64,000 nt of DNA, taken from contig CAZVRB010000004.1 of assembly GCA_964629365.1 (NCBI GenBank), positions 18,827 to 82,826 of the forward strand, read 5' to 3'. Shown piece by piece: positions 1 to 48,618 of the stretch (position 1 is its first letter; the number at the start of each line of letters is the position of its first letter). A program made the translations under genes and the position numbers. The notes beneath the pieces were generated by a model. That model saw nothing but the letters and a program-made list of their open reading frames with translations, had not been told where the DNA came from and ran no database searches. The stretch comes from an uncultured Leptospiraceae bacterium. Its GTDB lineage: Bacteria; Spirochaetota; UBA4802; UB4802.

Positions 1-810
1 CTGCTAGCCGGATGTGACATAGGGTCCCTCACTGCAAAGGCGGTGCTCTTAGACCTTGATACGGGTAAAATTCTATCGCAGGGGATACTGCCTGTCAGGC
101 CCACTGCAGCTGAATCATCATACGCTATCATGAATATAGTACTCAACCGGGTTGGCCTGTCTCACGATGATATTGATTACCTCTGCAGCACCGGGTATGG
201 CAGGCTGGAAATTCCATTCGCGGACATGCACATCAGTGAAATATCCTGTCATGGAAGAGGGGCACACTGGCTTGACACGTCAATCCGTACAGTGGTAGAT
301 ATTGGCGGCCAGGACTGCAAGGTCATCTCAATTGATAACGCGGGGTTTATCAATGACTTCATTATGAATGATAAATGCGCTGCCGGTACAGGACGATCAC
401 TCGAGATGCTTGCAGCCACAATTGGGGTTCCACTTGATGATTTGGGCAGGCTTTCACTCAAATCCCGGAAACCAGTACCCATATCAAACAAGTGCAGCAT
501 TTTCATGGAGCTTGAAGTTCTTGATGCCATGTACCGCAAAAAAAAATTGAAACACATAGCCCACGGGCTTACCGACGCCGTCGCAAAACGTGTTGCATCA
601 CTGGCAAAGGCCGTCCCGGTGCGCGAAAGTATATGTATTACCGGGGGTGTAGCAAAAAACATGGGTGTTGTCCGTCAACTTGAGAAATACATGGATATAC
701 ATTTCAAAAAACTTCCAGTAGATTCACAGCTTATCGGCGCTATTGGTGCAGCCCTCTTCGCGGGTGATACATACACAAAAAAAGGGGTCCCATCGGAGGC
801 AAAATGCTGA
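1..810 (+). CDS. BadF/BadG/BcrA/BcrD-type ATPase (HgdC-like CoA-substrate-specific enzyme activase), 5' end truncated by window edge
   Basis: N-term LAGCDIGSLTAKAVLLD matches the GIDxGST actin-fold start and continues in-frame to base 1. DIGGQDCKVI, NDKCAAGTGRSLE (cluster-Cys motif) and NKCSIFMELEV motifs present. Only a few codons are missing upstream. Confidence 0.8.
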   Translation: MLAGCDIGSLTAKAVLLDLDTGKILSQGILPVRPTAAESSYAIMNIVLNRVGLSHDDIDYLCSTGYGRLEIPFADMHISEISCHGRGAHWLDTSIRTVVDIGGQDCKVISIDNAGFINDFIMNDKCAAGTGRSLEMLAATIGVPLDDLGRLSLKSRKPVPISNKCSIFMELEVLDAMYRKKKLKHIAHGLTDAVAKRVASLAKAVPVRESICITGGVAKNMGVVRQLEKYMDIHFKKLPVDSQLIGAIGAALFAGDTYTKKGVPSEAKC

Positions 811-1649
811 CGGCGGGTATCGATGTGGGAACTCGTTTCATAAAGGTGGCAATCACTGATGGGAACATTATGATGGGTTCAAGCTGTATAGAACTGGCTG
901 CCGATTTCAGGGGAATACTTAAGGCCTGTTTTCAAGAGGCACTTGCAGATGCCGCCAATTTCAGTTCTACCCGGGTACGGAAAAGACATGTAAAGAAAAT
1001 AATAGCCACGGGATACGGTGCACACCTTGTAAAACAGGCGGCATATACCATACAGGAATCATTCTGCCTTGCACGTGCCGCTCGTTTCCTGTCACGGGAT
1101 ACCAACACGGTGATAGACAGCGGTGGACTATTTATAAAGGTGGTTACTGTCAATGAACATGGCTTCCCCGAAGAAAGCCATGTCAATGAAAAATGTGCAG
1201 CCGGCAGTGGCAGGTTCCTGGAGATGATTTCCGCGGCATTGAATATTTCGATTAATGAAGTATCACATACAGCATCCAAATCAACAAATCCATATAATAT
1301 CGTGAACAGCTGTGCCGTGTTCGCCGAAAGCGATGTCATCAGCCAGGTAAACGCGGGAACATGTGGTGAAGATATCATCGCCGGTGTTCTCAATGTAATA
1401 ACATTAAAAACCATAACACTCCTGGAAGGTGTGGATTCCGGTGATACAATTGTCATGGCAGGGGGACTTGCAAAGATACCTGCATACATACACGCTCTTG
1501 AACGTTATTCAAAGAAAGATATTTCTCTCATATCTATTGACCCGCAAATGCCTGCAGCATTTGGCGCAGCCCTTATTGCACAGGGAAGGACAATGGTATC
1601 ACACGAAAGAAAAAATGGGACGGGTAGAAAACAAATCCATGATAAGTGA
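804..1649 (+). CDS. second BadF/BcrAD-type activase ATPase (HgdC/BcrA-like)
   Basis: MLTAGIDVGTRFIKV N-term, NEKCAAGSGRFLE and SCAVFAESD motifs, about 280 aa. Overlaps the upstream activase by 7 nt, so the tandem pair resembles BcrA/BcrD. Confidence 0.8.
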   Translation: MLTAGIDVGTRFIKVAITDGNIMMGSSCIELAADFRGILKACFQEALADAANFSSTRVRKRHVKKIIATGYGAHLVKQAAYTIQESFCLARAARFLSRDTNTVIDSGGLFIKVVTVNEHGFPEESHVNEKCAAGSGRFLEMISAALNISINEVSHTASKSTNPYNIVNSCAVFAESDVISQVNAGTCGEDIIAGVLNVITLKTITLLEGVDSGDTIVMAGGLAKIPAYIHALERYSKKDISLISIDPQMPAAFGAALIAQGRTMVSHERKNGTGRKQIHDK

Positions 1650-2436
1650 AAAAGTGAATAATAAAAAGACACAGGATCATGCACCTCTTATTGAGGTCAT
1701 ACACAAAATAACCGGAAACACCACAAGAAGATTCATGGAGTATCCACTTGATGATGGCATTGAAGCTGACAGGTTTAATCTGCGGTCACCCCATGGAGTG
1801 AAAAAACCCGTAATCGTCACCGCAGAAGACACCGCCCTGGAAATTGGATCACCCCATCACCGGGCAGTAAACACGCTGCTGTGGACACACCGGAAAGGAG
1901 TTATCCGCAACCGTGTACTAATCGGAGGCATTGAGATGGAAGAAGCAATGCCGGGACCAGTTACGGCCGCTGTTTGCAGTATGACCGAGATAGAAGAATC
2001 TCTCGACACAAGCGGTCCAAACTTCCAGGCCCTGCGCCATCTTTCCAATATGCTGCCGGGATACATGATTCGCAGTATGCCAGGCAAGATGTGGGTACGT
2101 CTCCACCATAATCTGGTAAAATCAGGTTTTTCATCATATTCACTTGCCCAGTGTCTTGCCCATGCGTATCGTCAATTACATCCAGCCATCAGCGCAGTAG
2201 AGGTAATGGTAGTGATGGGTATACCGGATATCGTAGAGGAAATGGAGTCCGTAGATCTCAGGGCCAGGATCATTAACGGTACAAATCGCAACATTTCACT
2301 CGAAGAAGACGGGTCCCTGGTCTGTGAAGACCTGGATTGTACACACTGCGAGAATATGGCCTCCTGTGATATCATCAGGGAAATAATAAAAAAGAAAAGA
2401 GGAAATAATGGGAAAAACCATCGCCTTCACGGGTAA
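1613..2436 (+). CDS. hypothetical protein with C-terminal Cys cluster (CEDLDCTHCENMASCD); family not recognised
   Basis: Long ORF in a third frame. The likely start is ATG 1613 (MGRVENK) or ATG 1637 (MISEKV), just overlapping the activase stop. No motif I recognise, and it overlaps the CooC-like gene start by about 29 nt. Confidence 0.45.
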
Positions 2437-3181
2437 GGGAGGGGTGGGCAAAACCGCTCTATCCGCCATATGCGGGAAAATACTCATTGAGAAAGGGGAA
2501 CGGGTTCTTTTTATTGATGCTGATCCTGCGATGGGGCTTGCTACCGCCCTGAATGTGAAAGAGTATACAACCATAGGACAGGCACGAGAAGAGATTATCC
2601 GGCAGGTACGAACCACATCCCCGGAGGATGACAAGGCCCCCCTGGCTGATATCATTGATTATCTTCTTCTTGCATCACTGCACGAGGCTGAAGGATACAG
2701 CCTCATAGTAATGGGGCAGACTGATACACTTGGATGTTTTTGCTCATTGAATTCCCTTCTAAAGGATACTATCACTTCAATAAGTGAAGAATACGACTGG
2801 ATTATTATTGATGCCGAAGCAGGATTTGAGCAGGTAAATCGACAGGTTATGAACACCGTACAATTCCCGGTCATCGTCAGCGATAATACAATGCGTGGTG
2901 TTAAAACCGCATCAATGATCATGGAGGTCATAGATCGCATCCCATCAATGAATCCCCTGCGTACCGGTCTCATTTTTAACAGGGTAGAAAAGGCAGAACC
3001 GCAACTTGTACGCAACATCAAATCAGCCGGAATCAATTATTACGGGCATGTGCCTGCTGATAGTGATATATCAAGAATTGACCTGGATGGCACCTCAATT
3101 CTTGATATATCCCGCGATTCTATATCCATGCAAAACATGAAACGTATTCTCTCCGAAAGTAAAATTCTTCAAAAAACTTGA
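2408..3181 (+). CDS. CooC/MinD-family P-loop ATPase (CooC-type metallochaperone-like)
   Basis: Deviant Walker A TGKGGVGKT, and a GCFCS (C-x-C) motif where CooC has its metal-binding CxC. About 257 aa. AGAGGA RBS upstream. Confidence 0.7.
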   Translation: MGKTIAFTGKGGVGKTALSAICGKILIEKGERVLFIDADPAMGLATALNVKEYTTIGQAREEIIRQVRTTSPEDDKAPLADIIDYLLLASLHEAEGYSLIVMGQTDTLGCFCSLNSLLKDTITSISEEYDWIIIDAEAGFEQVNRQVMNTVQFPVIVSDNTMRGVKTASMIMEVIDRIPSMNPLRTGLIFNRVEKAEPQLVRNIKSAGINYYGHVPADSDISRIDLDGTSILDISRDSISMQNMKRILSESKILQKT

Positions 3182-3286
3182 GATTACACTCCCTGAAGTT
3201 TTGTTTCAGCCACTTCACGCCGTACACGACATCACCCTGTTAACCCTGTAGAATGCACTCACATATTATGCGTGAGGAGTAATCAG

Positions 3287-4681
3287 ATGAGAGACGTATA
3301 TATAATTGGAGCTCACACGGTGAAGTTCGGAAAGCACCTCGACAGGTCAATATCCGACCTGTGCAGGATGACAGTTTTCCCCTGCCTCGAAGATGCCAGC
3401 CTTAAAAAAGATGATATACAGGCTATCTGGTTCGCTAATTCTGCATGGGGAGAATACCGGCGACAGGTTTGCATAAGAAGCCAGGTTGCTTTACGACCTC
3501 TTGGTATTGACACGATACCAATGACAAACGTGGAGAATGCATGTGCGGGTGGATCAACTGCCCTCCATCACGCCTGGCTTGGTGTAGCCAGCGGCCTGTA
3601 CGATATCACCATGGCACTTGGCGCAGAAAAAATATACGACCCCAACCGGCACCTGGTATTCTCCGGTTTCCTGACCGGAATGGATGTAGCCAACTTCAAG
3701 GAATCGGTTGCGTTGCTGCCCTCATTATCAATGTCCGATGACGATAAAGAAGCAATGTTCCAACATATCGAAAAGTATGCAAAGAACACAAAGGGAAAGT
3801 CCAAAAAAAGACAAACCGTAAAACAGAAAATCAGGGACACCCGTGATTCCCTGGTAATTGCCATACGAATCGGGGAAAGCATGGGATATGATGCGCTAAA
3901 AATTATTAAGAAACTGATGACCGGTGATCATTCCCCCTTCATGGACGTGTATGGCCATGAAGCCAGGAAGCATATGAAAAAATACGGCAGTTCAATTGAA
4001 GACCTTGCCGTAATTGCATCAAAAAACCATATGCACAGCACCATGAACCCCAATGCCCAATACCAGTTCCCTATCTCTAAAGAAGATGTTCTGGCAGACC
4101 GTCTTGTATCCTGGCCATTGACACGTTCAATGTGTGCTCCCGTCGGTGATGGTGCCGCCTCGTCAATACTCTGTGACGAAAAAACTGTAAGAAAACTTGG
4201 CCTCATGTCCCAGGCAGTAAAAATCAGGGCATCCATACTTGGCTCAGGAAAAGCAAGAGAAGAAAACGAGATGGACCTTGGCCAGCGTCTGGCAAATCGT
4301 GCCTATGAACAGGCGGAGCTTTCACCATCAGACATGGATATAGCCGAGGTTCACGATGCAACAGCTTTTGGAGAACTTCACCAGACAGAAAACCTGGGAT
4401 TCTGCAATGCCGGAGAGGGCGGCACCCTGGCCCAGAGCGGTGCCACACGTATCGGAGGAAAAATTCCCGTTAACACCAGTGGAGGACTTGAATCCCGCGG
4501 GCATCCCATCGGGGCATCCGGGCTTGGACAGGTTCATGAAATCGTCACCCAGCTGCGGGGTAACGCAGGAAAACGGCAGGTAGCATCCCCAAGAATAGGA
4601 ATAGCAGAAAACGGCGGCGGGGCTCTTGGTGTAGAAGAAGCGGCCATGTGCATACACATACTGGAAACACCACAAAAGTAA
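3287..4681 (+). CDS. thiolase-fold protein, SCP-x / nonspecific lipid-transfer-type acetyl-CoA C-acyltransferase with ~80 aa insertion
   Basis: VYIIGAHTVKFGK, NVENACAGGSTAL (active-site Cys) and C-terminal NTSGGLESRGHPIGASG / IAENGGGALG motifs. GAGGAG RBS 7 nt before ATG 3287 (the track ORF starts earlier at 3272). A lysine-rich segment around residues 150-230 is absent from canonical thiolases. Confidence 0.75.
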   Translation: MRDVYIIGAHTVKFGKHLDRSISDLCRMTVFPCLEDASLKKDDIQAIWFANSAWGEYRRQVCIRSQVALRPLGIDTIPMTNVENACAGGSTALHHAWLGVASGLYDITMALGAEKIYDPNRHLVFSGFLTGMDVANFKESVALLPSLSMSDDDKEAMFQHIEKYAKNTKGKSKKRQTVKQKIRDTRDSLVIAIRIGESMGYDALKIIKKLMTGDHSPFMDVYGHEARKHMKKYGSSIEDLAVIASKNHMHSTMNPNAQYQFPISKEDVLADRLVSWPLTRSMCAPVGDGAASSILCDEKTVRKLGLMSQAVKIRASILGSGKAREENEMDLGQRLANRAYEQAELSPSDMDIAEVHDATAFGELHQTENLGFCNAGEGGTLAQSGATRIGGKIPVNTSGGLESRGHPIGASGLGQVHEIVTQLRGNAGKRQVASPRIGIAENGGGALGVEEAAMCIHILETPQK

Positions 4682-6468
4682 TGAAGGAACAGGTGAACGA
4701 TATGATGAGTCAAAACTTGAAAATATTTATCGGAAAGATGAGAATGCTGAAAAATGTAACCAGGTCATTGTTCATCTTCATGGGAGAAGATATCAAACGG
4801 GGTACTCTTTCAAAGAACCTCAAGGGCATCGGCAAGATGGAGCTTGCCGAAGAGATGTCCTGGGCAGAACTTGTGGAAGAAAAAGCCGCAAAATATGGCA
4901 GCAGGACATACCTTACATATGAGGACAGAAACTTCTCATACAGTGATATGAATGACAATGCAAATCGTATCGCAAATTTTCTTAAGAAAGCCGGTGGTCA
5001 ACAGGGTGTGGGGGTTGCCATCTTTATGGACAACAGTCCACGTTTTCTTGATGTTTTCTTTGGCCTGCAGAAGATCGGAATGTATGCCGTCCCGGTAAAT
5101 ACATCATTAAAAGGTGAGGGCATGAAGTATATTCTCAATCATTGTGATGCCCGGTTTCTCGTGATAGACCAGCAGCACCTTCACACACTCCAAAAGATCG
5201 AAGCCAACCTTGATACCATTCATACCATTATCGTGAACCCCTCAGAGAATTCTCCCATCATAGCTGAAAGAAATTATCTTTCCCTTGATGACGCCTACAC
5301 TGAGAATCCCCATAATCCGGGTACAGGCTATAACAGGGACGACATCTGTTTTATTACCTACACCTCCGGCACTACCGGGCTTCCCAAGGGTGTGGTCTAT
5401 CGCTATCGCAACAGCGGGGTGAAGTTTTTCTCTCTTATCGCCCATATATTGTGGAGAAAACGAGATGTCATGTATACCTGCATGCCCCTTTTCCATGCCA
5501 ATGCTCTTGTTGTTACCTGTACCAGCGCACTGCACGCGGGAGCCCGTGTTGTGCTTGAGAAAAAGTTTTCGGCAAGTCGATTCTGGCACTCTATTCGTAC
5601 ACATGGCGTTACTACTTTCAATACCATCGGTGCCATGATCCCTATCCTCATGAAACAGCCCGAGAATGAACTTGATGGAAAAAACAAAGTTCGTTTTATC
5701 ATATCTGCCGCATGCCCCCCTGAACTATGGGAACAATTCGAAAAACGCTTCAATACAACAATATACGAAACATATGGAGCAGTTGACAGCGGCGGCAAAA
5801 CCATCTTAAACCTGGGCACCGCACCGGTGGGATCAATTGGCAAACCACCCATGAAGGTAACATATCGCCTGGTTGACGAACACATGAATGATGTACCTGA
5901 AGGAGAACCGGGAGAATTAATATTCCCCGCGCCAAAAGAAAAGACTGCCAGTTCGGGTGTTGAGTTTTATAAAAATGAAGAAGCAACCTCTGCCAAGCAA
6001 AGCGATGGGTGGATCAGGACCGGGGATCTTCTGAAACGGGATAAGAAAGGATACCTTTATTTTGTAGGACGTAATACCGAGTCCATGCGGATCAAGGGGG
6101 AAAATGTCTCTGCCTACGAAGTTGAACAGGTAATACAAAATCATCCTTCTGTACTGGAAGTTGCCGTATATGCGGTCCCCTCAGACCTGGCTGAAGATGA
6201 GATCATGGCAAGGGTTAAAATTGTGGACGGGAAAAGAATAACAGAAAAAGAACTATGGGAATTCATCATTGAGAACCTGGCAAAATTTGCCGTCCCCAGG
6301 TATATTAAATTTGTTTCTGACTTTGATAAAACAGAGACCCATCGCATAAAGAAGAAACAGCTGGAGCAGGACGGAATTGTAGAAGGTACATACGACGCAC
6401 AGAAAAACACCTATATAACGACAGGAAATAACAAACCGAAAGAAGCTGCAACCGGACACAGTGTATGA
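4681..6468 (+). CDS. AMP-dependent acyl-CoA synthetase/ligase
   Basis: YTSGTTGLPKGV AMP-binding motif, a TGD motif and the two-domain ANL layout. ATG 4681 overlaps the thiolase stop (TAATG), which suggests translational coupling. The track ORF start at 4648 is probably too early. Confidence 0.8.
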   Translation: MKEQVNDMMSQNLKIFIGKMRMLKNVTRSLFIFMGEDIKRGTLSKNLKGIGKMELAEEMSWAELVEEKAAKYGSRTYLTYEDRNFSYSDMNDNANRIANFLKKAGGQQGVGVAIFMDNSPRFLDVFFGLQKIGMYAVPVNTSLKGEGMKYILNHCDARFLVIDQQHLHTLQKIEANLDTIHTIIVNPSENSPIIAERNYLSLDDAYTENPHNPGTGYNRDDICFITYTSGTTGLPKGVVYRYRNSGVKFFSLIAHILWRKRDVMYTCMPLFHANALVVTCTSALHAGARVVLEKKFSASRFWHSIRTHGVTTFNTIGAMIPILMKQPENELDGKNKVRFIISAACPPELWEQFEKRFNTTIYETYGAVDSGGKTILNLGTAPVGSIGKPPMKVTYRLVDEHMNDVPEGEPGELIFPAPKEKTASSGVEFYKNEEATSAKQSDGWIRTGDLLKRDKKGYLYFVGRNTESMRIKGENVSAYEVEQVIQNHPSVLEVAVYAVPSDLAEDEIMARVKIVDGKRITEKELWEFIIENLAKFAVPRYIKFVSDFDKTETHRIKKKQLEQDGIVEGTYDAQKNTYITTGNNKPKEAATGHSV

Positions 6469-6480
6469 GTTGAACGATCA

Positions 6481-6516
6481 GGGGAGAGAACCACAATTCA
6501 ACTCTCCCCTTCTTTT
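6481..6516. terminator. bidirectional rho-independent terminator hairpin between convergent genes
   Basis: GGGGAGAG-13 nt loop-CTCTCCCC followed by TTCTTTTCC on the + strand. Confidence 0.4.
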
Positions 6517-8147
6517 CCCTGCATCATTACACGATATTCACTTGGTGTCTTACCTGTCTGTTTTTTAAATTGCCGGTGGAAATGCGTCAGGTTGTCGAAA
6601 CCCACATGATACGCGATATCTATAATCTTTGCATCTGTTTCCATCAACAAATCTTTTGCCCCTTCAATACGCTTGTTGTTTATATAATTCGATATGTTTA
6701 TTCCCGTTGTTTTTTTAAATACCTGCCCCATGTAATCTTCATTGAGACCAAATTTTTTCGACAGATCCTTACGGTCATATCGCTCCTGGTAATTCACATC
6801 AAGGTATTCAATGACATCATGTATCATATCCCTTGGATCAGGTTTCACCGACTCACCCTTAATTGAATTGAGTATTCGCTCCATTTTCTTTGTTTTTTTC
6901 AAAAGGGCACCGTACAGCGAATCCTTCTCTCTTTTCATTCGTTCAAAATCATAGATATAATACAAAGCGAATATGGTGAATACCAGCGGCACATGGAAAA
7001 ATATCAGCATCGGGAGTTCATCGAATCGAAATGTGGCCATGTAATACGTATTTCTAAGAACCGAGACCGGAACCGGGATAGCCACAAAAAGGAAGTACCA
7101 GTATCGTCGTGGGTCCCGTCGTATACATATAAAAAAAAGTACAGCAGCGGTTATAATACAGAGATTAACAAAAATGACCGTTCCCAGGCCTGCACCCTTG
7201 ATAAGAAAGGACGTATCAGGTGCTAAAACTATTGCCAGCACCAGAGGCATACCCAGTATAAATGACATCCATACTATATACTTATTTTTTATATCAAAAA
7301 ATTCCATGACCGCATGCAACGCGATAAAATTAACCAGGGTGAGGCTCATCAGGAACATCTTGTATCGCAAAAGGCCTGAAATAGCACAATTGAAATCCAG
7401 CATGGTCACATTACCGGCGAGGGTGAATAAAACGAGAAGGAAGAAATAGAGGTATTCTCTCCGGCCGGTACGGGATACCGCCAGTACCCCGAGTCCCAGC
7501 AGGAAAAGAAAATTGAGTGCCACAGAAGAAATATTGATCAGTATTGGAGTTTTGTTTTCTATTCTATGCGCAAAATACCCGCCGGGATATTCTGTAATTC
7601 CCATATATCCATTGATGCCGCTGATCACATGTGAAAAGACCCGAATAGCGATAGTATTATATTCACCATACCGAACAAGCGTATCGGGTAGTAGATAAGA
7701 ACGGCCCTGTTGCCATGAGAAATGGTACCTGTCATCTTCTTTATCCGGTATGGTTCCATTTGCACCCACCTGTATACCATTGAGGAACGTCTCATCTGCC
7801 ACACCAATTCGTCCCAGGAGAAGACATAATGATTTTCCCCTGTACTCTTCACCTATAAAAATTTTTTTCCGCAGCCATATAGTGGCCTCAAGGTTTTGCT
7901 GATCAATAATCAGGCGGGTAAAACTTCCAGGTAATTCCAGTTCAGGATAATCTCTATCATCCAGGGAAGGAAGGGCAAGTTCAGGATTATCGAAGGTTGA
8001 ATACTTCCATGTTCCACTGCAATCAATATCAGTGTCAGGGGTTCCTGCGGTAGTACATGCAGTACACAACAAGACAACACAGGCGATGCATATATATTTG
8101 ATAGTAGTCATAATCACATGAACATGAGTTTTGCAATATTTCCCCAA
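6498..8147 (-). CDS. 7TMR-DISM (DISMED2 extracytoplasmic domain + 7TM) fused to AraC-family HTH regulator
   Basis: Signal peptide and lipobox-like CTAC, an about 180 aa periplasmic beta-rich domain, then 7 hydrophobic helices. C-terminal HTH_AraC: DIAYHVGFDNLTHFHRQFKKQTGKTPSEYR. Confidence 0.7.
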   Translation of the reverse strand: MGKYCKTHVHVIMTTIKYICIACVVLLCTACTTAGTPDTDIDCSGTWKYSTFDNPELALPSLDDRDYPELELPGSFTRLIIDQQNLEATIWLRKKIFIGEEYRGKSLCLLLGRIGVADETFLNGIQVGANGTIPDKEDDRYHFSWQQGRSYLLPDTLVRYGEYNTIAIRVFSHVISGINGYMGITEYPGGYFAHRIENKTPILINISSVALNFLFLLGLGVLAVSRTGRREYLYFFLLVLFTLAGNVTMLDFNCAISGLLRYKMFLMSLTLVNFIALHAVMEFFDIKNKYIVWMSFILGMPLVLAIVLAPDTSFLIKGAGLGTVIFVNLCIITAAVLFFICIRRDPRRYWYFLFVAIPVPVSVLRNTYYMATFRFDELPMLIFFHVPLVFTIFALYYIYDFERMKREKDSLYGALLKKTKKMERILNSIKGESVKPDPRDMIHDVIEYLDVNYQERYDRKDLSKKFGLNEDYMGQVFKKTTGINISNYINNKRIEGAKDLLMETDAKIIDIAYHVGFDNLTHFHRQFKKQTGKTPSEYRVMMQGKEGES

Positions 8148-8337: not shown

Positions 8338-8784
8338 TTGCAGAGGCACTTAATTATGAATGATAATGTATTTCTTCGTCTATACAAAGTTATATTTATC
8401 CTGGCTGCACTCTGGAATATTTGTGTCGGTGCTACAGGACTCCTGTTCCAGAATTATTCCATTCAATTGTTTTATGGAAGCAGTGCGTTGCATGAGACGT
8501 TTATCGCAATGCTGAATTATCGCATCGTTATGCTGGCAATAATTATTTTCGGGCTTGGATATTTTATCGTATCCAGGGCACCCCTCTTGAACAGGGGAAT
8601 AATATGGCTTGGGCTTTTAAGCAAGCTCATCCTGTTTTGCATATTTACGTTTCATTTTTTCACCGGAAATACCACCATATTCGCATTTCTTCTCGTCTGC
8701 GGAGACATGGCATGGTCACTTATATTCTTATATTTTCTATTCAAAAGTTCGCATCACGTAAAATATAATTTTTTAACAGGATAG
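8338..8784 (+). CDS. small integral membrane protein, hypothetical
   Basis: 148 aa, 4 predicted TM helices, AT-rich promoter region upstream. Confidence 0.4.
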   Translation: MQRHLIMNDNVFLRLYKVIFILAALWNICVGATGLLFQNYSIQLFYGSSALHETFIAMLNYRIVMLAIIIFGLGYFIVSRAPLLNRGIIWLGLLSKLILFCIFTFHFFTGNTTIFAFLLVCGDMAWSLIFLYFLFKSSHHVKYNFLTG

Positions 8785-8792
8785 AATACGGC

Positions 8793-9548
8793 ATGAAAAA
8801 AAAACCAGATACTACACTGTCCCCCCTGTATACCTATCATGAAGGGATGCAATGGAACCCCGTCGAAAAGGTGATATTTGAGCGAAGGAGCATTCGTGTC
8901 TTCAGGAAAAAAGATGTACCGGATTCCCTTATCAAAAGAATTTTAGAAGCAGGTCGGTTTGCCCCTTCAGCGGGCAACTGCCAGCCCTGGAAATTCGTGG
9001 TAATAAAAGATCCACAGGTTATAGAGCAAATGGAACGGGACACAATACGAATTACCCGACTCCTGATGTGGTTCATTGACTACGAACGGGGACCCGTAAG
9101 GCGTATTCTTCTGGGCACTCCGGTAAGGCTTTTGGCCAGGCTTGTGCCCAACATGCTGCACCCCATACCATTCAACCTGCTTCAGCGCATCGCCGCTGGT
9201 TCAGTACCCGTGTATCATAATGCCCCGGTTATAATCCTTCTTTTGGTAGACAAGCGAGGGGTTGGAACACCATCACTGGACGCGGGAATTTGCGGACAAA
9301 ACATGGTACTGGCTGCACACAGCCTGGGTCTGGGCACATGCTGGATCGGAATGATCACCTTGCTGATGAAAATGAAGAAGTGGCGTAAACGTTTTGGGGT
9401 TACATACCCATTTACCCTTGACGACTGTCTCATACTGGGCTGGCCACGGGGGGATTATGATGGTGAAATAGATCGCGAAATACAACTCGTTGAATGGATC
9501 AAAGAAGGTTCATCGTGGGACAAAACTACAGAACGACAGGGGGAATAA
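8793..9548 (+). CDS. nitroreductase family protein
   Basis: RRSIRVF...AGRFAPSAGNCQPWKFVVI signature of the NADH oxidase/nitroreductase fold. Confidence 0.75.
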   Translation: MKKKPDTTLSPLYTYHEGMQWNPVEKVIFERRSIRVFRKKDVPDSLIKRILEAGRFAPSAGNCQPWKFVVIKDPQVIEQMERDTIRITRLLMWFIDYERGPVRRILLGTPVRLLARLVPNMLHPIPFNLLQRIAAGSVPVYHNAPVIILLLVDKRGVGTPSLDAGICGQNMVLAAHSLGLGTCWIGMITLLMKMKKWRKRFGVTYPFTLDDCLILGWPRGDYDGEIDREIQLVEWIKEGSSWDKTTERQGE

Positions 9549-9549
9549 C

Positions 9550-9906
9550 ATGGCAAACCTTTCCATTCTGGATAAAGCAAAAATACCCAACTATTTCAAG
9601 TCAAAGCATATACGAACCGGCCTGGTCGTCTTTGATCCGTCACTGTGCACAGGATGTGGAATCTGCGTTTCCATCTGCCCTGCCGGTGCCATAACGATGA
9701 ACAGCCATATCCCGGGGGAGCGAACGAAAATCCCTGAGCTTGTACAGCTCTTTCATGATAAAGACATTCTCGCCTGCATGGCCTGCGGTGATTGCACGGC
9801 AGCATGTCCCAGTGATGCTATACAAATTAAGAGAGGATACAATACGAAGTATTATTTCAAAAAGATATCCCAGGTGCCCGACTTTGCTTTCCCCAAAAAA
9901 TACTGA
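9550..9906 (+). CDS. 4Fe-4S dicluster ferredoxin-domain protein
   Basis: Two CxxCxxCxxxCP motifs (CTGCGICVSICP, CMACGDCTAACP). The start MANLS at 9550 abuts the nitroreductase stop. Confidence 0.7.
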   Translation: MANLSILDKAKIPNYFKSKHIRTGLVVFDPSLCTGCGICVSICPAGAITMNSHIPGERTKIPELVQLFHDKDILACMACGDCTAACPSDAIQIKRGYNTKYYFKKISQVPDFAFPKKY

Positions 9907-10069: not shown

Positions 10070-10771
10070 ATGAAAAAAGCATTTTTTGCGGTTTTTCTAA
10101 TGTTGTTTGTCGTATCCTGTGGTCCATCAGCTAATCCGCAGCTCAAGGCAAAGATCAGCCCATACTTTACACAGGATTCTTCCACTCGTATCAGGGCATC
10201 AAAGAAATTTTATTCACCCATGCCCCTTGCCATTGGGCAGTACGCAGTTTATGGAACCATTGAAGATGATGGTACCCGCTCAATCACAAAGACCAGTATT
10301 GTTGGCAGGGAAGCCGGTGGCTGGATATATGAATCCTACACCCTGTCTGAGACCCAGGAGAGCACAGTACAAATTCTCATCAGGGGACTTGAAAAAGTTC
10401 GAAAGTCAGGAAACATTGATGACATCGAACTCTTATGGGTAAAGATTAAGGGAGAGGACGGCAAAGTGCAAAAGCTTGAAGGCCCTGTTCTCATGATGGC
10501 CAAATCACTGTACAAAAAACACCTTTCAGGACTGGATGTAACTGTTTCCCAATATGTGAACGGTGGTACAGTCAAGGTTCCCGCTGGATCATTCGCAGGC
10601 ACTAACAAGGTCAAGTCAGAGGTCACCTTCTGGGGTAAAAAGTATAAGAGCACAGGCTGGTACCATTATAAAGTCCCTATTAACGGTATGGTTAAATCGG
10701 TAACTGATGATGGTGATTCCACAATGGTGCTTCTAGAGTATGGCACCCGGGGCGCAAAATCTTCATTTTGA
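10070..10771 (+). CDS. lipoprotein, hypothetical
   Basis: MKKAFFAVFLMLFVVSC lipobox signal peptide, GGA-rich RBS. Confidence 0.5.
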   Translation: MKKAFFAVFLMLFVVSCGPSANPQLKAKISPYFTQDSSTRIRASKKFYSPMPLAIGQYAVYGTIEDDGTRSITKTSIVGREAGGWIYESYTLSETQESTVQILIRGLEKVRKSGNIDDIELLWVKIKGEDGKVQKLEGPVLMMAKSLYKKHLSGLDVTVSQYVNGGTVKVPAGSFAGTNKVKSEVTFWGKKYKSTGWYHYKVPINGMVKSVTDDGDSTMVLLEYGTRGAKSSF

Positions 10772-10829: not shown

Positions 10830-12389
10830 TTATTTCATTCCGAAAAATGAACTGATGCTATTTATAATCTCATCTCCGTAATCTCCCAGCAATTCACCTG
10901 TACTTTTTCTGTGCTTAAGCTGCAGTCTTGATTCAGTTTCCAGCTTGCGGCTTGCCATTACTTTTGCAAGCTCTTCAATAACCTCCGGCCTTTTTTCCAG
11001 TATAGGGGCAAGGTCTTCCCTGGAAAATTCCATGGCCTGGCAATCGGTAAGGGCAACAATTGTGGCCGATCTGCGCTCACCTGTTAAAAGTGAGTTTTCC
11101 CCGAAACAATCCCCGGTTGCCAGGCGCTCCAGTTCAACCGGCTTGCCATATGAATCAAGACGGGATATGGAGATTACACCGGCAGTTAATACCATCAGGG
11201 AATCACCTTTGTCCCCTTCCCTGACAATGGTTTCGTTTTCCCTGTAACTATTCAGGGTTACCCTTTCCAACAGTTCTTTGCGCTCTTCTTCGGTAAGAGG
11301 CGAAAAAATTTCAACGCTGGATATAAGTTCGTCAAGACCGGGTTCAATTATTTCATTGCGCTCTCCACTAAAGACATTCACTTCATGAGCGGATGGTGGC
11401 GGACTTATTCCTGCCTTCTGGCAATAATTCCATATCTCCATGAAAAGGTCATCACGGGCGGCAAAATACGTGGGATAATCTTCAAAATATACAAAAACAG
11501 AGTAGAGATAAGGCCTGCTCGTCCCATCCGAGAGGCGAACTACAGGGGGAGGATCCTTCAAAACTTTTTTACAGCTGAGAGCTGCTTCCAGTAAAACCCG
11601 ACGTACGAGTTCAGGAGAGATATCAGGTGAAATTTCCATCTTGAACCATGTACAGTAAACCCTGTCAGGCAGGTTGTAATTATGGATTGTGGAGGACATG
11701 GCTTTTCCGTTGGGTACTACGTACACGCTCTTGTTCCATGACAAAAGTCTTGTTGAGCGCCAGTTGATATCCACAACCTTCCCAATAGTACCATCACCCA
11801 TCTCAATCCAGTCATTGATACGGTAGGGTTTCTCTATGCTGAGAGCTATACCCGCGAATATATCTCCCAGGGTAGTTTGCATCGAAAGACCTATAACCCC
11901 GGCAATAATCCCTGATGAAACAAGAAGACCGGTTACAGGGCGGTCAAACACAAAGGTCATAATGCCATAAATGGCAAGGAGGTATACCCCTATCCTCACA
12001 AGGTTTTGCAGTATGTTGGGAACATCCATACCGGTTCGCCGTTTTACCATCCCTTTCCATACAAATAAATCTACAGCCTGAACAATTATACGGGCAAAAA
12101 TCAACCATAGTAAAACGGTTCGACCACGAGTTATCATGTTCGCGATTCTATCATCAAGAATAGGACCAAGCCAGTTGAATACCAGTGCTTCAAGTGACAA
12201 TACAAATAGGGGCAAAAGCACTATCTGTATCAACCAGAAAAAACGGATTATCAACAGCACCTGCAAACGATCAGCTGCTTTTTTCAATATCACGTATATA
12301 ACAAAAATCACGAGGACCGGATACGCCATCTCAACTGGCAGGCTTGATGTACTGCCCTTGAGGTATTCCAATATCATATGCACATTCAT
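10830..12389 (-). CDS. MscS-family mechanosensitive channel with C-terminal cyclic-nucleotide-binding domain
   Basis: TM region plus MscS pore/beta domain (GDIFAGIALSIEKPYRINDWIE...VVPNG). C-terminal cNMP-binding domain (GDKGDSLMVLTAGVISI...GDCFGENSLLTGERRSATI). Confidence 0.8.
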   Translation of the reverse strand: MNVHMILEYLKGSTSSLPVEMAYPVLVIFVIYVILKKAADRLQVLLIIRFFWLIQIVLLPLFVLSLEALVFNWLGPILDDRIANMITRGRTVLLWLIFARIIVQAVDLFVWKGMVKRRTGMDVPNILQNLVRIGVYLLAIYGIMTFVFDRPVTGLLVSSGIIAGVIGLSMQTTLGDIFAGIALSIEKPYRINDWIEMGDGTIGKVVDINWRSTRLLSWNKSVYVVPNGKAMSSTIHNYNLPDRVYCTWFKMEISPDISPELVRRVLLEAALSCKKVLKDPPPVVRLSDGTSRPYLYSVFVYFEDYPTYFAARDDLFMEIWNYCQKAGISPPPSAHEVNVFSGERNEIIEPGLDELISSVEIFSPLTEEERKELLERVTLNSYRENETIVREGDKGDSLMVLTAGVISISRLDSYGKPVELERLATGDCFGENSLLTGERRSATIVALTDCQAMEFSREDLAPILEKRPEVIEELAKVMASRKLETESRLQLKHRKSTGELLGDYGDEIINSISSFFGMK

Positions 12390-12636
12390 ATCCTGTTCCT
12401 GATTACATGGAATATATTAACCACTTTAACAGAATACCCATAGTATATGCAAACCAGCTAGTCAACAACATTGTACTGGGTAACAGGGGATATTATTTTT
12501 CTTGATTTTTTTCGGAAATACCGGTAATACTATATTCTAATCTACATTGTTCATGCGGGTTTTTTGCATACCTCTCACACCGATAACACCTGCCCGTAAT
12601 AATGCAACGCGCACTCATCCTGATGGAGGATACGAA

Positions 12637-14205
12637 ATGCCGGCTACAGTAAGCAGTCTTGATGAATTAACCAGGGCAGGAACACTTCTTACACAGGAGT
12701 TGGACTTCAAATCATTGATCTCCATCATCGCAGAACAGACACTGGATATATCCCTTTCAGACCTGGCCTGCCTTTACCTGGCAAAAGACCCAGAAGACAA
12801 TAATAGTGATTTACAACTAGCATATAAGAGGGGAAGATATGATGTCCCTTCCCGTATAACAGCTTCAAGTGAACTGGTTGACTTCATACGAGAATCGGAT
12901 GAGACCGTTGTTCTTACAGATCGTAAAAGAAGCCCTTTTCTTGATATACTCTGTAATGAACATATGCATTGCGGCATCGCCATGCCTCTATCTACTCCCA
13001 AAATCATGGTGGGTATACTGGTACTTAACAGCATAGAACCTGGATTTTACAACAGGGAAAAGTTTAACTTTCTGGATTCATTTTCCAGGCTGGCAGGTGG
13101 CATGCTGCATAATTCCCGCATGTTCAAACAACTCAGGGACTACCTGCGGGAGATCGAAGAGTTGCATTTATACCAGGAAAGTATATTCTCTTCCATGACC
13201 AACCTGCTTATTACCACGGATAATAGTGGAGAAATTCAGTATTACAATACCGTGGCAGAAGAACGATTTGGACTATCCGACGAACAGAAGGGCAAAAAAT
13301 TTGATACAGTGTTTAAAGACTCAATGAACAGAAAGATAATCAATGCCATAAATTCTTCCATCAGGCAGCCAAAGGAAATGCCTGGAATAGAAGGTATTTT
13401 CCGTGATGAAGAAAAAGAGATGGATTTCTCACTTAATCTTTCACCGCTTAAAGGCCGTCGTGGTAAACACCAGGGATTAACCCTTCTATTCACCGACCAG
13501 ACCCGCGAACGCGAACTGGAAGAAAAAATGGAGCGGGTGGTTGAAGAGCGACGCGTCATCAAGGACATGTTCTCCCGCTACCTTTCACAGGAGATAGTTC
13601 AAACATTGATGGAGCAGCCTCACCTTGTGAAACCCGGTGGTGACAAGAAGGAAGCCGCCATCCTTTTCGCAGATATACGGGGATATACAACCTTCTCAGA
13701 AACCAAGCCTCCCGAATATATTATTGAGATGCTAAACGACTATTTCAGCGAGGCTGTTGAGATCGTGGTGAAACATCGAGGGTATATAGACAAGTTTATT
13801 GGTGACGCCATAATGGCTGCCTGGGGGGTTCCCCTGCAAACAGAACAGCAGGATGCCATATCGGCGGTTTCTGCAGCCCTTGAAATTCAACAGTTAATCG
13901 CTTCAACCAGGCGGACATTCTTCAAGGGAGATGCGTCAGTACTGAAGGTGGGCATAGGATTACATACGGGACCCATAGTGGCCGGCAATCTTGGAAGCTC
14001 ACGGCGTATGAATTACACCGTTATCGGCGATACTGTCAATGTAGCTGCCAGGCTTGAAGGTGTAGCAAAGGGTGGTGAAGTTATCATCACACAGAAAACC
14101 CTCGACTACCTGGGTAACCTTTTCGCGGTCAAAAGCCTCGAGCCGGTAAAAGTAAAAGGAAAAGCAGATCCCATTCCCATATACAGTGTGCTCAAACAAA
14201 ATTAG
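12637..14205 (+). CDS. class III adenylate/guanylate cyclase with N-terminal GAF and PAS domains
   Basis: CHD motifs AILFADIRGYTTFSE, FIGDAIMAAWG, GLHTGPIVAGNLGS and YTVIGDTVNVAARLE. GGAGGA RBS before ATG 12637. Confidence 0.8.
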   Translation: MPATVSSLDELTRAGTLLTQELDFKSLISIIAEQTLDISLSDLACLYLAKDPEDNNSDLQLAYKRGRYDVPSRITASSELVDFIRESDETVVLTDRKRSPFLDILCNEHMHCGIAMPLSTPKIMVGILVLNSIEPGFYNREKFNFLDSFSRLAGGMLHNSRMFKQLRDYLREIEELHLYQESIFSSMTNLLITTDNSGEIQYYNTVAEERFGLSDEQKGKKFDTVFKDSMNRKIINAINSSIRQPKEMPGIEGIFRDEEKEMDFSLNLSPLKGRRGKHQGLTLLFTDQTRERELEEKMERVVEERRVIKDMFSRYLSQEIVQTLMEQPHLVKPGGDKKEAAILFADIRGYTTFSETKPPEYIIEMLNDYFSEAVEIVVKHRGYIDKFIGDAIMAAWGVPLQTEQQDAISAVSAALEIQQLIASTRRTFFKGDASVLKVGIGLHTGPIVAGNLGSSRRMNYTVIGDTVNVAARLEGVAKGGEVIITQKTLDYLGNLFAVKSLEPVKVKGKADPIPIYSVLKQN

Positions 14206-14229
14206 AAACAATATTCCAAAGGAGGTTTC

Positions 14230-47496: not shown

Positions 47497-48618
47497 ATGA
47501 TGAAAATACTATTAATGGCAGATTTACACCTGGGAGCTGTTTCCCCGGATACAGGAATTGATGACTCTGTGCGGCTGGATACCTTCAAAAAGATCGTATC
47601 CCTTGCGCATGAACATGATATTCTCATCATAGCCGGTGACCTTTTTGAAGGCCCTTTTGCAGACACCTATACCTTCATGCAAATGAATTCAGAACTGCAG
47701 TCACTTATTGATGCCGGTATTGATGTGATATTTACCGCGGGTGAAAGTGAGTTCCGTGATATTCCTAATCTCAGCAACCTGCTTTATATTCCGGCAAGCC
47801 ACACATTTCTTAACGATCACCCGGTATCCCCGGTTCATATAGAAAAGAACGGCACAAACCTGTACATATACAGCAAGCCGGCACTTGATACACAGGATGT
47901 TGCCACCATTCAAAAATGTGACAGCGAAGGATTCCACCTGGGAGTTTTCCATATTGACTTTGACCCGGGAAATCCCACCGGTGAAAGTCTCGTATACAAG
48001 CTTCCACGAGAAGCGGTAAAATCCCTGGATCTTGACTTTTACGCCCTGGGGCATAATCACAATTTCAAGCTATATAAGTTTCAGAACAGGATCATTGGTG
48101 CCTACCCGGGAAGTCCCGAAGCCACATCACCCGATGAGACCGGTGATCGATATGTATTGTCCATACATGTGGCTGGATCGGACATTATGCAGATTAAAAG
48201 GCTGGCTGTAAATACATTGAGCCTTGAAGAATTGCATATAGACTGCGAAACAATCAACTCCCAGGTTGAACTGGTGAATACTATTAACGCATCGGCTTCT
48301 CCCCGAACTGTACTCAGGGTTACCCTTTCAGGGAACAGGTCCTTTCCAATCGAAGGTATTTTTAATGCTCTTCAGGACAGGTGTGCAGATTTCAGACTTA
48401 TGGATAATTCAATACCCGACCTGCATCTTTTGATAATGCAGCATGCGTCTGAGCATTCACTCAGGGGAACACTTATGACAAGGTTACAGGAACTGGTAAA
48501 AGAAGACATGATTCCCGGAGATATCGACAAGACTATCCTTGCTGAAATACTGCACAGGATTAATACATCAAAACAATTCACACCGGAGGAATTGCTGTGC
48601 GAATCAAGAAATGCATAG
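47497..48618 (+). CDS. SbcD/Mre11-like calcineurin-type metallophosphoesterase
   Basis: MKILLMADLHLG, IIAGDLFEG and ALGHNH phosphoesterase motifs. Confidence 0.75.
   Translation: MMKILLMADLHLGAVSPDTGIDDSVRLDTFKKIVSLAHEHDILIIAGDLFEGPFADTYTFMQMNSELQSLIDAGIDVIFTAGESEFRDIPNLSNLLYIPASHTFLNDHPVSPVHIEKNGTNLYIYSKPALDTQDVATIQKCDSEGFHLGVFHIDFDPGNPTGESLVYKLPREAVKSLDLDFYALGHNHNFKLYKFQNRIIGAYPGSPEATSPDETGDRYVLSIHVAGSDIMQIKRLAVNTLSLEELHIDCETINSQVELVNTINASASPRTVLRVTLSGNRSFPIEGIFNALQDRCADFRLMDNSIPDLHLLIMQHASEHSLRGTLMTRLQELVKEDMIPGDIDKTILAEILHRINTSKQFTPEELLCESRNA

Follow-up and report, generated by a model that had tools for sequence, protein, structure and literature searches.

A short homologue of the acetyl-CoA synthase middle domain encoded beside a CooC-type ATPase in benzoyl-CoA-reductase-like gene clusters

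Acetyl-CoA synthase (ACS, or CdhC) is considered to be among the oldest metalloenzymes and, to our knowledge, is known only from the acetyl-CoA pathway. The cubane of its A-cluster is held by a C-x2-C-x8-C-x9-C motif at the start of domain A3; the four ligands, at the A2/A3 boundary, are C506, C509, C518, and C528. The proximal nickel takes three of its four ligands, and the distal nickel all of its ligands, from a Cys-Gly-Cys motif. SIMIBI ATPases such as CooC, NifH, and Mrp/Nbp35 typically serve to deliver clusters or metals. Among them, AcsF acts on the metal site of ACS and CooC on that of CO dehydrogenase (CODH), and the only clients of CooC-type ATPases that we know of are the Ni-Fe-S clusters of these two enzymes. 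For the benzoyl-CoA reductase (BCR), 2-hydroxyacyl-CoA dehydratase (HAD), and double-cubane enzymes, it is still poorly understood how electrons are supplied and how substrates are handled. We know of no ACS-like subunit or CooC-type ATPase in any characterised class I BCR, HAD, or double-cubane system.

In CaACS, acetyl-CoA binds mainly to the middle domain (A2), with the adenine stacking on Trp405, and Arg383 and His386 are thought to catalyse acetyl transfer (preprint 10.1101/2024.08.05.606187). PMC12289521 likewise cites a role for the middle domain in ACS. According to Triant and Pearson (2015, PMC4443539; UniProt B8FZT4), a single structural sub-domain of PF03598 (CATH 3.30.1650.10) stands alone in some proteins. 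That remark is the same kind of observation as ours, and B8FZT4 is likened to the protein described below on that ground only. It is a remark on domain annotation and, in contrast to the present analysis, involves no cysteine motif, genomic context, partner ATPase, or functional proposal.

Here we describe a widespread cut-down relative of ACS that has its own CooC-type ATPase and has been recruited to ATP-driven radical acyl-CoA reductase systems. The combination of an ACS-like protein with a CooC-type ATPase in radical acyl-CoA reductase clusters has not been described before: no published description of the family, or of its combination with CooC and BCR, was found in the literature on truncated ACS, CooC, and BCR/double-cubane enzymes. 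With a biochemical function that is predicted only, the gene keeps its interest for another reason than the one first given.

The gene, its family, and its relation to ACS

The window, that is, the whole 64,000-nt stretch of Leptospiraceae DNA that was analysed, contains on its forward strand a frame that is open from 1429 to 2436 (mechanical ORF call) and ends with TAA at 2434-2436. We refer to its product as mini-ACS. Two in-frame ATG codons are available, at 1615 (273 aa) and 1639 (265 aa). The initial annotation had placed the alternative starts at 1613 and 1637, each 2 nt off a real in-frame ATG, and the frame read from 1613 holds 21 stops. In locus L008, which is 94% identical, the equivalent of position 1615 reads ATG-TAA; relative P0002 (81% identical) begins at the equivalent of ATG 1639; and conservation within the gene is lowest over the 8 codons that separate the ATGs. 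These observations point to ATG 1639 as the conserved and likely start (gene at 1639..2436, + strand, 265 aa), and the first ATG, with a stop right behind its equivalent in L008, is probably unused. Residue numbers below are nevertheless counted from ATG 1615.

As reported at the outset, the gene overlaps both of its neighbours. The upstream BcrAD-type ATPase gene has its stop (TGA 1647-1649) inside the mini-ACS gene, giving an overlap of 35 nt from ATG 1615 or 11 nt from ATG 1639, and the 3' end overlaps the start of the CooC-like gene by 29 nt (2408..2436, + strand). The latter layout is the same in L007 and L008. Small overlaps or gaps between the CdhC-like and CooC-like genes recur in other lineages (L012, L014, L024, L025, and L027), which bears out the tight coupling that had been proposed.

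A word-indexed homology search returned only 3-4 relatives, and an exhaustive HMMER search was needed to recover the family. It yielded 228 cluster representatives at E<=1e-3 and 97 at E<=1e-10, with lengths of 95-319 aa among the 150 of the 228 matches listed. Members occur in Thermodesulfobacteriota, Spirochaetota (Leptospirales), Chloroflexota, Myxococcota, and other groups, and in one of them, P0104, the mini-ACS part is naturally fused with a ferredoxin domain of the 2x[4Fe-4S] type. Mini-ACS is a member of this unnamed, uncharacterised protein family. Its frame is conserved from 95% to about 20% identity in several bacterial phyla, the opposite of the loss of frame at homologous loci that had been named as grounds for dropping the gene, and the earlier view that it is a real conserved protein-coding gene holds. 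Overlaps with both neighbours, and a score of the window protein alone below the Pfam threshold, might otherwise suggest a spurious or overprinted ORF without a protein product. The probability of this is vanishingly small: the reading is refuted by a protein sequence that is conserved in several phyla, with invariant residues, at identities as low as about 20%, by a confident AF2 model (pLDDT 89, pTM 0.82) with a specific fold match, and by conserved gene order.

The family is homologous to the middle (A2) domain of ACS/CdhC. A profile of 99 family sequences matched ACS in the PDB at E 1.3e-21, aligning with residues 319-510 of ChACS and 318-506 of MtACS, and 91 of the 99 relatives match Pfam CdhC (E<=0.01). 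Only this profile was decisive; phmmer with the window protein alone against the PDB gave noise (SAMHD1, E>1), and the ACS matches of a 4-sequence profile stayed below threshold. The AF2 model likewise gives a specific match to the A2 fold, and the protein can no longer be called unclassifiable, as it had been. The motifs E-x-G, G-P-D, and W-x-R-[IV]-S are common to mini-ACS and ACS. From the N-terminus, the protein consists of A2, a compressed four-cysteine loop directly after it, and a short basic helix, followed by the stop. Mini-ACS differs from ACS in having no A1 domain, as is also the case in CdhC, and no A3 beyond the cysteine loop. Both the A3 domain and the Cys-Gly-Cys nickel motif are absent from the window protein and the 99 aligned members.

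These differences weigh on the possibility that mini-ACS is a genuine ACS/CdhC, the beta subunit of a CODH/ACS that makes or cleaves acetyl-CoA. Relatives carry the name 'CO dehydrogenase/acetyl-CoA synthase beta subunit' in IMG, and the window protein gives weak matches to Pfam CdhC and NCBIfam cdhC (E 7e-6 for the latter). NCBI, however, names relatives 'hypothetical protein', and the scores lie far below the curated cut-offs, with 18.9 bits against 24 for Pfam CdhC (PF03598), 25.0 against 355.95 for TIGR00316, and 25.1 against 372 for NF003379. The protein has 265 aa compared with 460-730 aa and lacks A3 and the Cys-Gly-Cys nickel site. Neither the window ORFs examined nor the flanks of 27 loci (L001-L027) contain a CODH, corrinoid Fe-S protein, or methyltransferase gene; the neighbours of mini-ACS are BcrAD/HGD-D radical-enzyme genes instead. 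Without the nickel site, A3, and a Wood-Ljungdahl context, a genuine ACS beta subunit is refuted as far as sequence analysis allows, and we regard it as very improbable. The database names should be corrected, as the IMG label would wrongly suggest Wood-Ljungdahl capacity in metagenome surveys.

The cysteine motif and the putative CoA-site residues

The most conserved feature of the family is the cysteine motif C237-x4-C242-x2-C245-x5-C251 (2323..2367, + strand), which reads C-EDLD-C-TH-C-ENMAS-C in the window protein (residues 237-251) and is a predicted [4Fe-4S] site, judging from its conservation and its alignment to ACS. In the 99 aligned members, C242, C245, and C251 are present in 99/99 and C237 in 96/99, so the check on homologues that had been called for came out in favour of the motif. 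G78 and R162 are likewise invariant, and C237, W160, E76, P80, and G149 are at least 96% conserved. The family consensus is C-x(3-5)-C-x2-C-x5-C, with a spacing of 4-2-5 in 71 members, 5-2-5 in 23, and 3-2-5 in 2; one subgroup of relatives has only three motif cysteines. Acidic residues beside the cysteines are also conserved (D/E at 246 and 247; D252 in 81/99). The motif is followed by D-x-[IL]-[RK] and by a basic helix at the C-terminus. Mini-ACS ends 22 residues past the last motif cysteine, and this tail is no longer than 44 residues, and usually basic, in all 99 aligned members. The confidence of the AF2 model is lowest in the cysteine-motif region (pLDDT about 70).

The four conserved cysteines sit at the A2/A3 boundary, in a position equivalent to that of the ACS cubane cysteines. 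Given this position, the natural reading is a site that binds a metal or an Fe-S cluster, as was first suggested from the cysteines themselves. In the alignment of the family profile with ACS, which runs up to ChACS 510, the first two motif cysteines fall on the C-x2-C of ACS with a different spacing. Overall, the spacing is 4-2-5 in mini-ACS and 2-8-9 in ACS, and one-to-one homology of the ligands is not implied.

Two further conserved stretches lie upstream of the motif. The E76-L-G78-x-P80 loop (1840..1854, + strand) is near-invariant (E 97/99, G 99/99, P 96/99) and aligns with VEFGG of ACS. The second, G149-Y-M151-x-R153 ... W160-x-R162 (2059..2100, + strand), is conserved at W160 (97/99), R162 (99/99), R153 (91/99), and G149 (96/99). 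W160 and R162 align with the 'W-V-R-I-S' of ACS, and profile alignments give W426/R428 in ChACS and W427/R429 in MtACS as their counterparts. Mapped by a constant numbering offset, W160 would be the counterpart of the adenine-stacking Trp405 of CaACS, so that mini-ACS appears to keep the tryptophan that stacks on CoA adenine in ACS. The catalytic arginine and histidine of ACS are not kept; the equivalents of CaACS Arg383 and His386 are not conserved in the 99 aligned members.

The CooC-type partner and the surrounding gene cluster

The gene downstream of mini-ACS encodes a CooC-type P-loop ATPase of 257 aa (2408..3181, + strand; Pfam CbiA, AAA_31, and ArsA_ATPase). Its ATG at 2408 is preceded by a strong GAGGA Shine-Dalgarno sequence. 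The Walker A motif GKGGVGKT occupies residues 9-16 (nt 2432-2455), and a CxC metal motif (CFC) is encoded at nt 2735-2743. The protein aligns over 190 residues with CooC1 (3kje), with GCFC falling on QCYC. The CxC of CooC1 (Cys112/Cys114) binds metal and is located at the dimer interface. NifH and BchL match the P-loop region only, compared with the 190 residues including the CxC for CooC1, and a NifH-type Fe protein was rejected as the identity of the neighbour. A CooC-type ATPase gene lies beside mini-ACS in 20/23 independent loci, and each of the 22 loci with the gene retains its P-loop and GC[YF]C. The pairing of mini-ACS with a CooC-type P-loop ATPase that has an intact CxC metal site is a conserved one. 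Like CooC and AcsF, the neighbour has the deviant Walker A and the CxC of the CooC1 nickel site, and its position next to an ACS-derived protein mirrors the AcsF-ACS pairing. Unlike them, it has a presumed client without known nickel ligands, and its subfamily sits in BCR/HAD-type clusters and not with Wood-Ljungdahl genes.

This partnership raises the question of nickel. Mini-ACS could be a catalyst resembling the A-cluster, in which the CooC-like ATPase adds nickel or another metal via a bridging cysteine, as for the proximal nickel of ACS, for organometallic or thioester chemistry on a bound acyl-CoA and not for electron transfer alone. All known CooC clients are Ni-Fe-S clusters, the partner keeps the nickel-binding CxC in every locus that carries it, and translational coupling of the pair is seen in many lineages. 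Moreover, mini-ACS is derived from the only enzyme in which a cysteine links a cubane with nickel, it keeps the Trp and Arg of the CoA site, conserved acidic residues (246, 247, and D252) flank its cysteines, and the three-cysteine subgroup would leave a coordination site open. On the other hand, the Cys-Gly-Cys and the entire A3 domain are missing, four conserved cysteines suffice for a cubane alone, and the equivalents of the catalytic Arg and His are not conserved. No nickel transporter or other nickel-handling gene was found in the gene lists of the loci examined. On balance, we consider such a nickel catalyst unlikely.

Two BcrAD/HgdC-type electron-transfer ATPase genes precede mini-ACS. 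Subunit 1 (43..810, + strand), whose 5' end is cut by the window edge, matches Pfam BcrAD_BadFG at E 2e-47 and TIGR00241 with 211 bits, and subunit 2 (804..1649, + strand) matches BcrAD_BadFG (PF01869) at E 5e-36. Both have the two cysteines per subunit for a bridging [4Fe-4S] cluster (KCAAG[TS]GR and xxC[SA][IV]F), found as KCAAGTGR and NKCSIF in subunit 1 and as EKCAAGSGR and NSCAVF in subunit 2. Downstream of the CooC-like gene lie a thiolase of the SCP-x or 'lipid-transfer protein' type (3272..4681, + strand), which is in the same operon in most loci, and an AMP-forming acyl-CoA ligase of the same operon (4648..6468, + strand; the true start is probably downstream of 4648). The cluster also includes a conserved 148-aa membrane protein (8338..8784, + strand), a nitroreductase-family flavoprotein (8793..9548, + strand), and a 2x[4Fe-4S] ferredoxin (9550..9906, + strand; likely start ATG 9550, mechanical ORF from 9490), which is the probable electron donor.

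The window has the order BcrAD-BcrAD-miniACS-CooC, as does every distinct locus among L001-L019; L016, where the contig ends, shows a single BcrAD gene. The window begins within the first ATPase gene, and the HGD-D pair lies outside it. In the 94-95% relatives L007 and L008, an HGD-D pair and a GMC oxidoreductase are located upstream, HGD-D being divergent and lying just before the point at which the window begins, and the pair is present in 17 further loci. Loci from other phyla with 20-30% identity (L022, L024, L025, and L026) keep mini-ACS, CooC, and HGD-D(+BcrAD). In L021 and L027, mini-ACS adjoins acyl-CoA dehydrogenase genes, and the sequence in view shows no HGD-D gene. HGD-D has 6 conserved cysteines in subunit b and 3-4 in subunit a, and the best NCBIfam match of subunit b is 'double-cubane-cluster-containing anaerobic reductase'. 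The mini-ACS/CooC pair sits in clusters for enzymes of the ATP-dependent BCR, HAD, or double-cubane family. These clusters share with characterised class I BCR, HAD, and double-cubane systems the two BcrAD-type ATPase genes with cluster cysteines, and the HGD-D pair, ferredoxin, acyl-CoA ligase, and thiolase represent the usual layout of a pathway for ATP-driven acyl-CoA reduction or dehydration. They differ in that all their subunits score below the NCBIfam equivalog cut-offs of characterised members (bzdQ 186 against 380, double_cubane 200 against 350, HadC 147 against 700).

The same context admits a role outside the working enzyme. Mini-ACS and the CooC-like ATPase could be a scaffold and its ATPase, dedicated to building, inserting, or repairing an unusual cluster in HGD-D, such as one of the double-cubane type. 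The gene pair behaves as a unit accompanying HGD-D pairs in every arrangement, the ATPase is of the delivery-factor type, and subunit b, with its six invariant cysteines, has the double-cubane reductase as its best match. A ferredoxin fusion and a kept CoA-adenine site would, however, be odd in a scaffold, and some members adjoin acyl-CoA dehydrogenases with no HGD-D in view. The characterised double-cubane protein and HAD/BCR enzymes are not known to have needed such helpers to be obtained with their clusters, a precedent that also speaks against a maturation pair. We hold this role to be quite improbable.

Possible roles of the pair

The reading that we prefer, and to which we give about an even chance, is that mini-ACS serves a BCR-like enzyme as a redox accessory subunit that binds a [4Fe-4S] cluster and a CoA ester, and that the CooC-like ATPase matures it or works with it. 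The four motif cysteines would hold a [4Fe-4S] cluster, and through the Trp and Arg that it shares with the CoA-adenine site of ACS, the protein could bind a CoA thioester. In its redox-active role, mini-ACS may take up electrons from the co-encoded ferredoxin and/or offer the acyl-CoA substrate to the ATP-driven reductase. The CooC-like ATPase would load or remodel its metal site, in the manner of AcsF with ACS and CooC with CODH. The substrate is probably a hydrophobic carboxylic acid, activated as its CoA ester; START, SCP2-like, and lipid-transfer-type thiolase genes are recurrent neighbours. In this predicted role, mini-ACS would define a new accessory subunit for BCR/HAD/double-cubane enzymes, and if it holds a cubane only, it would be a new kind of client for CooC-type ATPases.

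Several observations count against the accessory-subunit reading. The HGD-D subunits have full conserved cysteine sets of their own, and HAD/BCR enzymes bind acyl-CoA themselves, so that an extra CoA-binding Fe-S subunit is not obviously needed. A plain [4Fe-4S] site normally needs no CooC-type ATPase. The cysteine spacing of mini-ACS is unlike that of ACS, the motif region is the least confident part of the model, and the equivalents of the ACS catalytic Arg and His are not conserved. In addition, at three loci (L020, L021, and L023) no CooC-like gene was seen in the sequence available.

A broader proposal covers more than nickel. The pair may carry a new ACS-derived metallocluster, either a cubane with nickel or another metal inserted by the CooC-like ATPase or an open iron site facing the CoA thioester, that works with archerase-type (BcrAD/HGD-D) radical enzymes. 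We put this forward tentatively and hold it to be rather unlikely. If true, it would be the first A-cluster relative outside the Wood-Ljungdahl pathway and a living intermediate or derived remnant in the evolution of ACS; should mini-ACS bind nickel, the very short list of Ni-Fe-S cofactors would grow.

With regard to a redox role of mini-ACS, two observations are in its favour, namely the natural fusion to a ferredoxin domain in P0104 and the ferredoxin gene in the same operon.

Family identity and gene boundaries

The mini-ACS gene (window 1639-2436, + strand) was initially annotated as encoding an unclassifiable protein. The family profile refutes this, matching ACS/CdhC structures and classifying the product as a truncated relative of acetyl-CoA synthase (ACS). 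Taken alone, the window protein gave a match below threshold to Pfam CdhC (E 0.0015), a weak one to NCBIfam cdhC (E 7e-6), and no significant match to PDB sequences. An exhaustive HMMER search recovered 228 cluster representatives at E<=1e-3, of which 97 reached E<=1e-10; lengths were 95-319 aa among the 150 representatives listed. The profile was built from 99 representatives, and conservation counts refer to the same 99 aligned members. Against the PDB it matched all ACS/CdhC structures with E values of 1e-20 to 1e-21. The aligned region (ChACS 319-510 and MtACS 318-506, two reference ACS proteins) covers the middle domain (A2) as far as the first A-cluster cysteines. Individually, 91/99 members matched Pfam CdhC.

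Both the conserved family and the conserved gene context confirm a real gene, and a spurious ORF is ruled out to the extent that sequence comparison permits. On the + strand the frame stays open across 1429-2436, with in-frame ATGs at 1615 and 1639. The starts proposed at 1613 and 1637 in the initial annotation are both 2 bases off, and the frame read from 1613 contains 21 stops. The reported overlaps with both neighbours were borne out. The upstream BcrAD-type ATPase gene (804-1649) stops (TGA 1647-1649) inside the mini-ACS ORF, and the mini-ACS TAA (2434-2436) falls 29 nt past the ATG of the CooC-like gene (2408), which is preceded by a GAGGA ribosome-binding site. At positions 10001-10006 of L008, a 94% identical public locus, which correspond to window 1615-1620, the first ATG is followed at once by TAA, so that the second ATG (window 1639) is the sole possible start there. 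The relative P0002 (81% identical) also starts at the second ATG, and the eight codons separating the two ATGs vary more than any other stretch of the gene. These three observations point to ATG 1639 as the start, giving a predicted product of 265 aa and an 11-nt overlap with the ATPase gene. Calls from the first ATG (P0001; window 1615) are probably 8 codons too long.

Cysteine loop and putative CoA site

Numbered from ATG 1615, residues G78, R162, C242, C245, and C251 are kept in 99/99 members, E76 and W160 in 97/99, P80, G149, and C237 in 96/99, G105 in 93/99, M151 in 92/99, and L77 and R153 in 91/99. The previously noted cysteine motif is indeed present as C-EDLD-C-TH-C-ENMAS-C (residues 237-251, nt 2323-2367). 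It follows the pattern C-x(3-5)-C-x2-C-x5-C in 96/99 members, and then come D-x-[IL]-[RK] and a basic tail. Its position is presumably that of C506, C509, C518, and C528 in ACS (MtACS numbering); the cysteine spacing differs, and the likeness is one of position, not a ligand-by-ligand alignment. The stop codon of the window gene lies 22 residues past the last motif cysteine, and none of the 99 aligned members has the remainder of A3, which in ACS includes the Cys-Gly-Cys nickel site. By homology, these comparisons show mini-ACS to be a real and conserved relative of the ACS A2 domain with a conserved four-cysteine loop.

The first motif cysteine is missing in 3/99 members and in P0104, a natural fusion of 308 aa with a C-terminal 2x[4Fe-4S] ferredoxin domain. 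The motif of P0104 reads DCTSCDYQEVCD; P0082, P0094, and P0110 likewise lack the first cysteine, which suggests a subgroup with a three-Cys cluster.

W160-x-R162 aligns to the W-[VL]-R-[IV]-S strand of ACS (ChACS W426/R428, MtACS W427/R429). In the complex of C. autoethanogenum ACS with acetyl-CoA, the ligand is bound mainly by A2, the adenine is stacked on Trp405, and an Arg/Lys patch lies opposite the diphosphate; Arg383 and His386 are the proposed catalysts of acetyl transfer (preprint 10.1101/2024.08.05.606187). The pattern R383-x2-H386-x18-W405 matches ChACS R404/H407/W426 with a constant offset, from which we infer that W160 of the family is the adenine-stacking tryptophan equivalent to Trp405. 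The equivalents of Arg383 and His386 are not conserved among the 99 members (R in 29/99 and Q in 36/99 at the respective positions), and the window protein has A139 and R141.

Gene neighbourhood and the CooC-type partner

The window opens within the first of two BcrAD/HgdC-type ATPase genes (43-810 and 804-1649, +), both with the bridging-cluster cysteine pair, followed by mini-ACS, the CooC-like gene (2408-3181, +), a thiolase, and an AMP-forming acyl-CoA ligase. Further downstream lie an AraC-type regulator on the opposite strand and then a 148-aa membrane protein, a nitroreductase-family protein, and a 2x[4Fe-4S] ferredoxin. The closest public relatives, L007 and L008, come from MAGs with the labels Spirochaetes and Leptospiraceae and show 94-95% identity. 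Just upstream of the equivalent of the window start, they carry a divergent HGD-D pair (catalytic subunits 'a' and 'b' of BCR/HAD/double-cubane-type enzymes), a GMC oxidoreductase, a START-domain protein, and a FadD-like ligase. Smithella and other Thermodesulfobacteriota have the same genes arranged in a single operon, all in one direction.

The window and every distinct locus within L001-L019 contain the quartet BcrAD-BcrAD-miniACS-CooC, with only one BcrAD gene visible in L016, which is cut by the contig end. Loci L021-L027 contain distant members with 20-30% identity. The orders are miniACS-CooC-HGD-D-HGD-D in L024, the same followed by BcrAD and then an OYE-type flavoprotein in L025, BcrAD-HGD-D-HGD-D-miniACS-CooC in L026 (Dehalococcoidia), miniACS-CooC-acyl-CoA dehydrogenase in L027, and acyl-CoA dehydrogenase-miniACS in L021. 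In L023 mini-ACS adjoins an HGD-D pair, and L022 has three HGD-D pairs, two BcrAD genes, a CooC-like gene, GMC, and thiolases.

In the HGD-D pairs (L008 5427-8054 (-) and homologues in 16 loci), the 'b' subunits have six invariant cysteines and the 'a' subunits three or four conserved ones, so that the catalytic subunits are equipped with clusters of their own. The best NCBIfam match of 'b' is the double-cubane reductase model (200 bits versus a cut-off of 350), and a reductase of the double-cubane type, in place of a dehydratase, may be the partner enzyme. The surrounding enzyme genes have the architecture of the BCR/HAD/double-cubane family, with no equivalog-level match to any characterised member. 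Mini-ACS is embedded in ATP-dependent acyl-CoA enzyme clusters of this type.

Within the sequence available, a CooC-like gene is present in 20/23 independent loci and was not found in L020, L021, and L023. The CooC-like protein of the window aligns with CooC1 (3kje) over 190 residues, placing GCFC over QCYC, the metal site of CooC1. Both the P-loop and GC[YF]C are retained in 22/22 loci having the gene, and the neighbour has the sequence features of a CooC-type ATPase, of which mini-ACS is a fixed partner. The CooC position in L020 is filled by an unannotated 269-aa ORF, SCP2-like by eye only.

Genes for CODH, corrinoid protein, and methyltransferase were absent from the window ORFs examined and from every locus flank. 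The likeness to ACS/CdhC suggests descent from it, with the fold, the putative CoA site, and a cysteine loop at the place of the cubane loop in common, whereas mini-ACS scores below the curated cut-offs and is without the A3 domain, nickel site, and Wood-Ljungdahl context; within the reach of such comparisons, a true ACS subunit is excluded. Relatives are named 'CO dehydrogenase/acetyl-CoA synthase beta subunit' in IMG and 'hypothetical protein' in NCBI. Judged by these features, mini-ACS should not carry the name of a CODH/ACS beta subunit, and the IMG name could make metagenome surveys report Wood-Ljungdahl capacity falsely. In the literature we found no description of the family, nor of BCR/HAD clusters with a CooC-type ATPase; the only related statement found was that genuine 'partial domains' of PF03598 exist as stand-alone units (PMC4443539).

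Proposed role and accompanying genes

The cysteine loop would bind a [4Fe-4S] cluster, and the Trp/Arg site would hold the ADP part of a CoA thioester. Mini-ACS would act as a redox-active accessory subunit connecting the ATP-driven reductase with the operon ferredoxin, the acyl-CoA substrate, or both, with the mini-ACS metal site loaded or remodelled by the CooC-like ATPase. We hold this reading as a whole with roughly even confidence; it is specific and testable. A Ni-bearing, A-cluster-like catalyst would fit the conserved CxC of CooC but appears unlikely, as the Cys-Gly-Cys ligands are missing and Ni-handling genes were not found in the gene neighbourhoods. That mini-ACS and the CooC-like protein are a pair dedicated to maturing the HGD-D clusters seems slightly less likely still; the ferredoxin fusion P0104 favours a position within an electron-transfer chain over a pure assembly role. 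A new cofactor working outside the acetyl-CoA pathway, either Ni-Fe-S or open-site Fe-S, is possible.

Lipid/sterol-carrier-type genes recur beside the clusters (L008 3386-4018 (-), L022 12181-12933, L020 10675-11484, window 3272-4681), comprising a START domain, a weak SCP2 match, a 'lipid-transfer protein'-type thiolase, and FadD-like ligases, which hints at a hydrophobic substrate. The AraC-type HTH regulator (window 6498-8147 (-)), with a long N-terminal membrane region, separates the acyl-CoA ligase from the remaining operon. It occupies this site only in the window lineage (also L008); the L019 homologue lies elsewhere, and Smithella loci have a divergent GntR in its place. The 148-aa multi-pass membrane protein (8338-8784 (+)) has no Pfam match and is cluster-conserved across loci at 30-45% identity. 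The mechanical ferredoxin ORF (9490-9906 (+)) from TTG 9490 overlaps the gene for the nitroreductase; translation probably starts at ATG 9550 (MANLS...), two nt past the nitroreductase stop at 9548, giving 118 aa compared with 116 aa for the L001 homologue. Just 3' of the ferredoxin, a 233-aa ORF (10070-10771 (+)) has no Pfam match and no homologue detected in other loci. A signalling block (10830-16812) adjoins the catabolic cluster and encodes a cNMP-binding MscS-type channel (-), a PAS-adenylate/guanylate cyclase (+), and an 860-aa HEAT-repeat protein (+). At 48597-50756 (+), the sole domain assignment of a 719-aa ORF is a weak N-terminal AAA_27 (E 2e-5).
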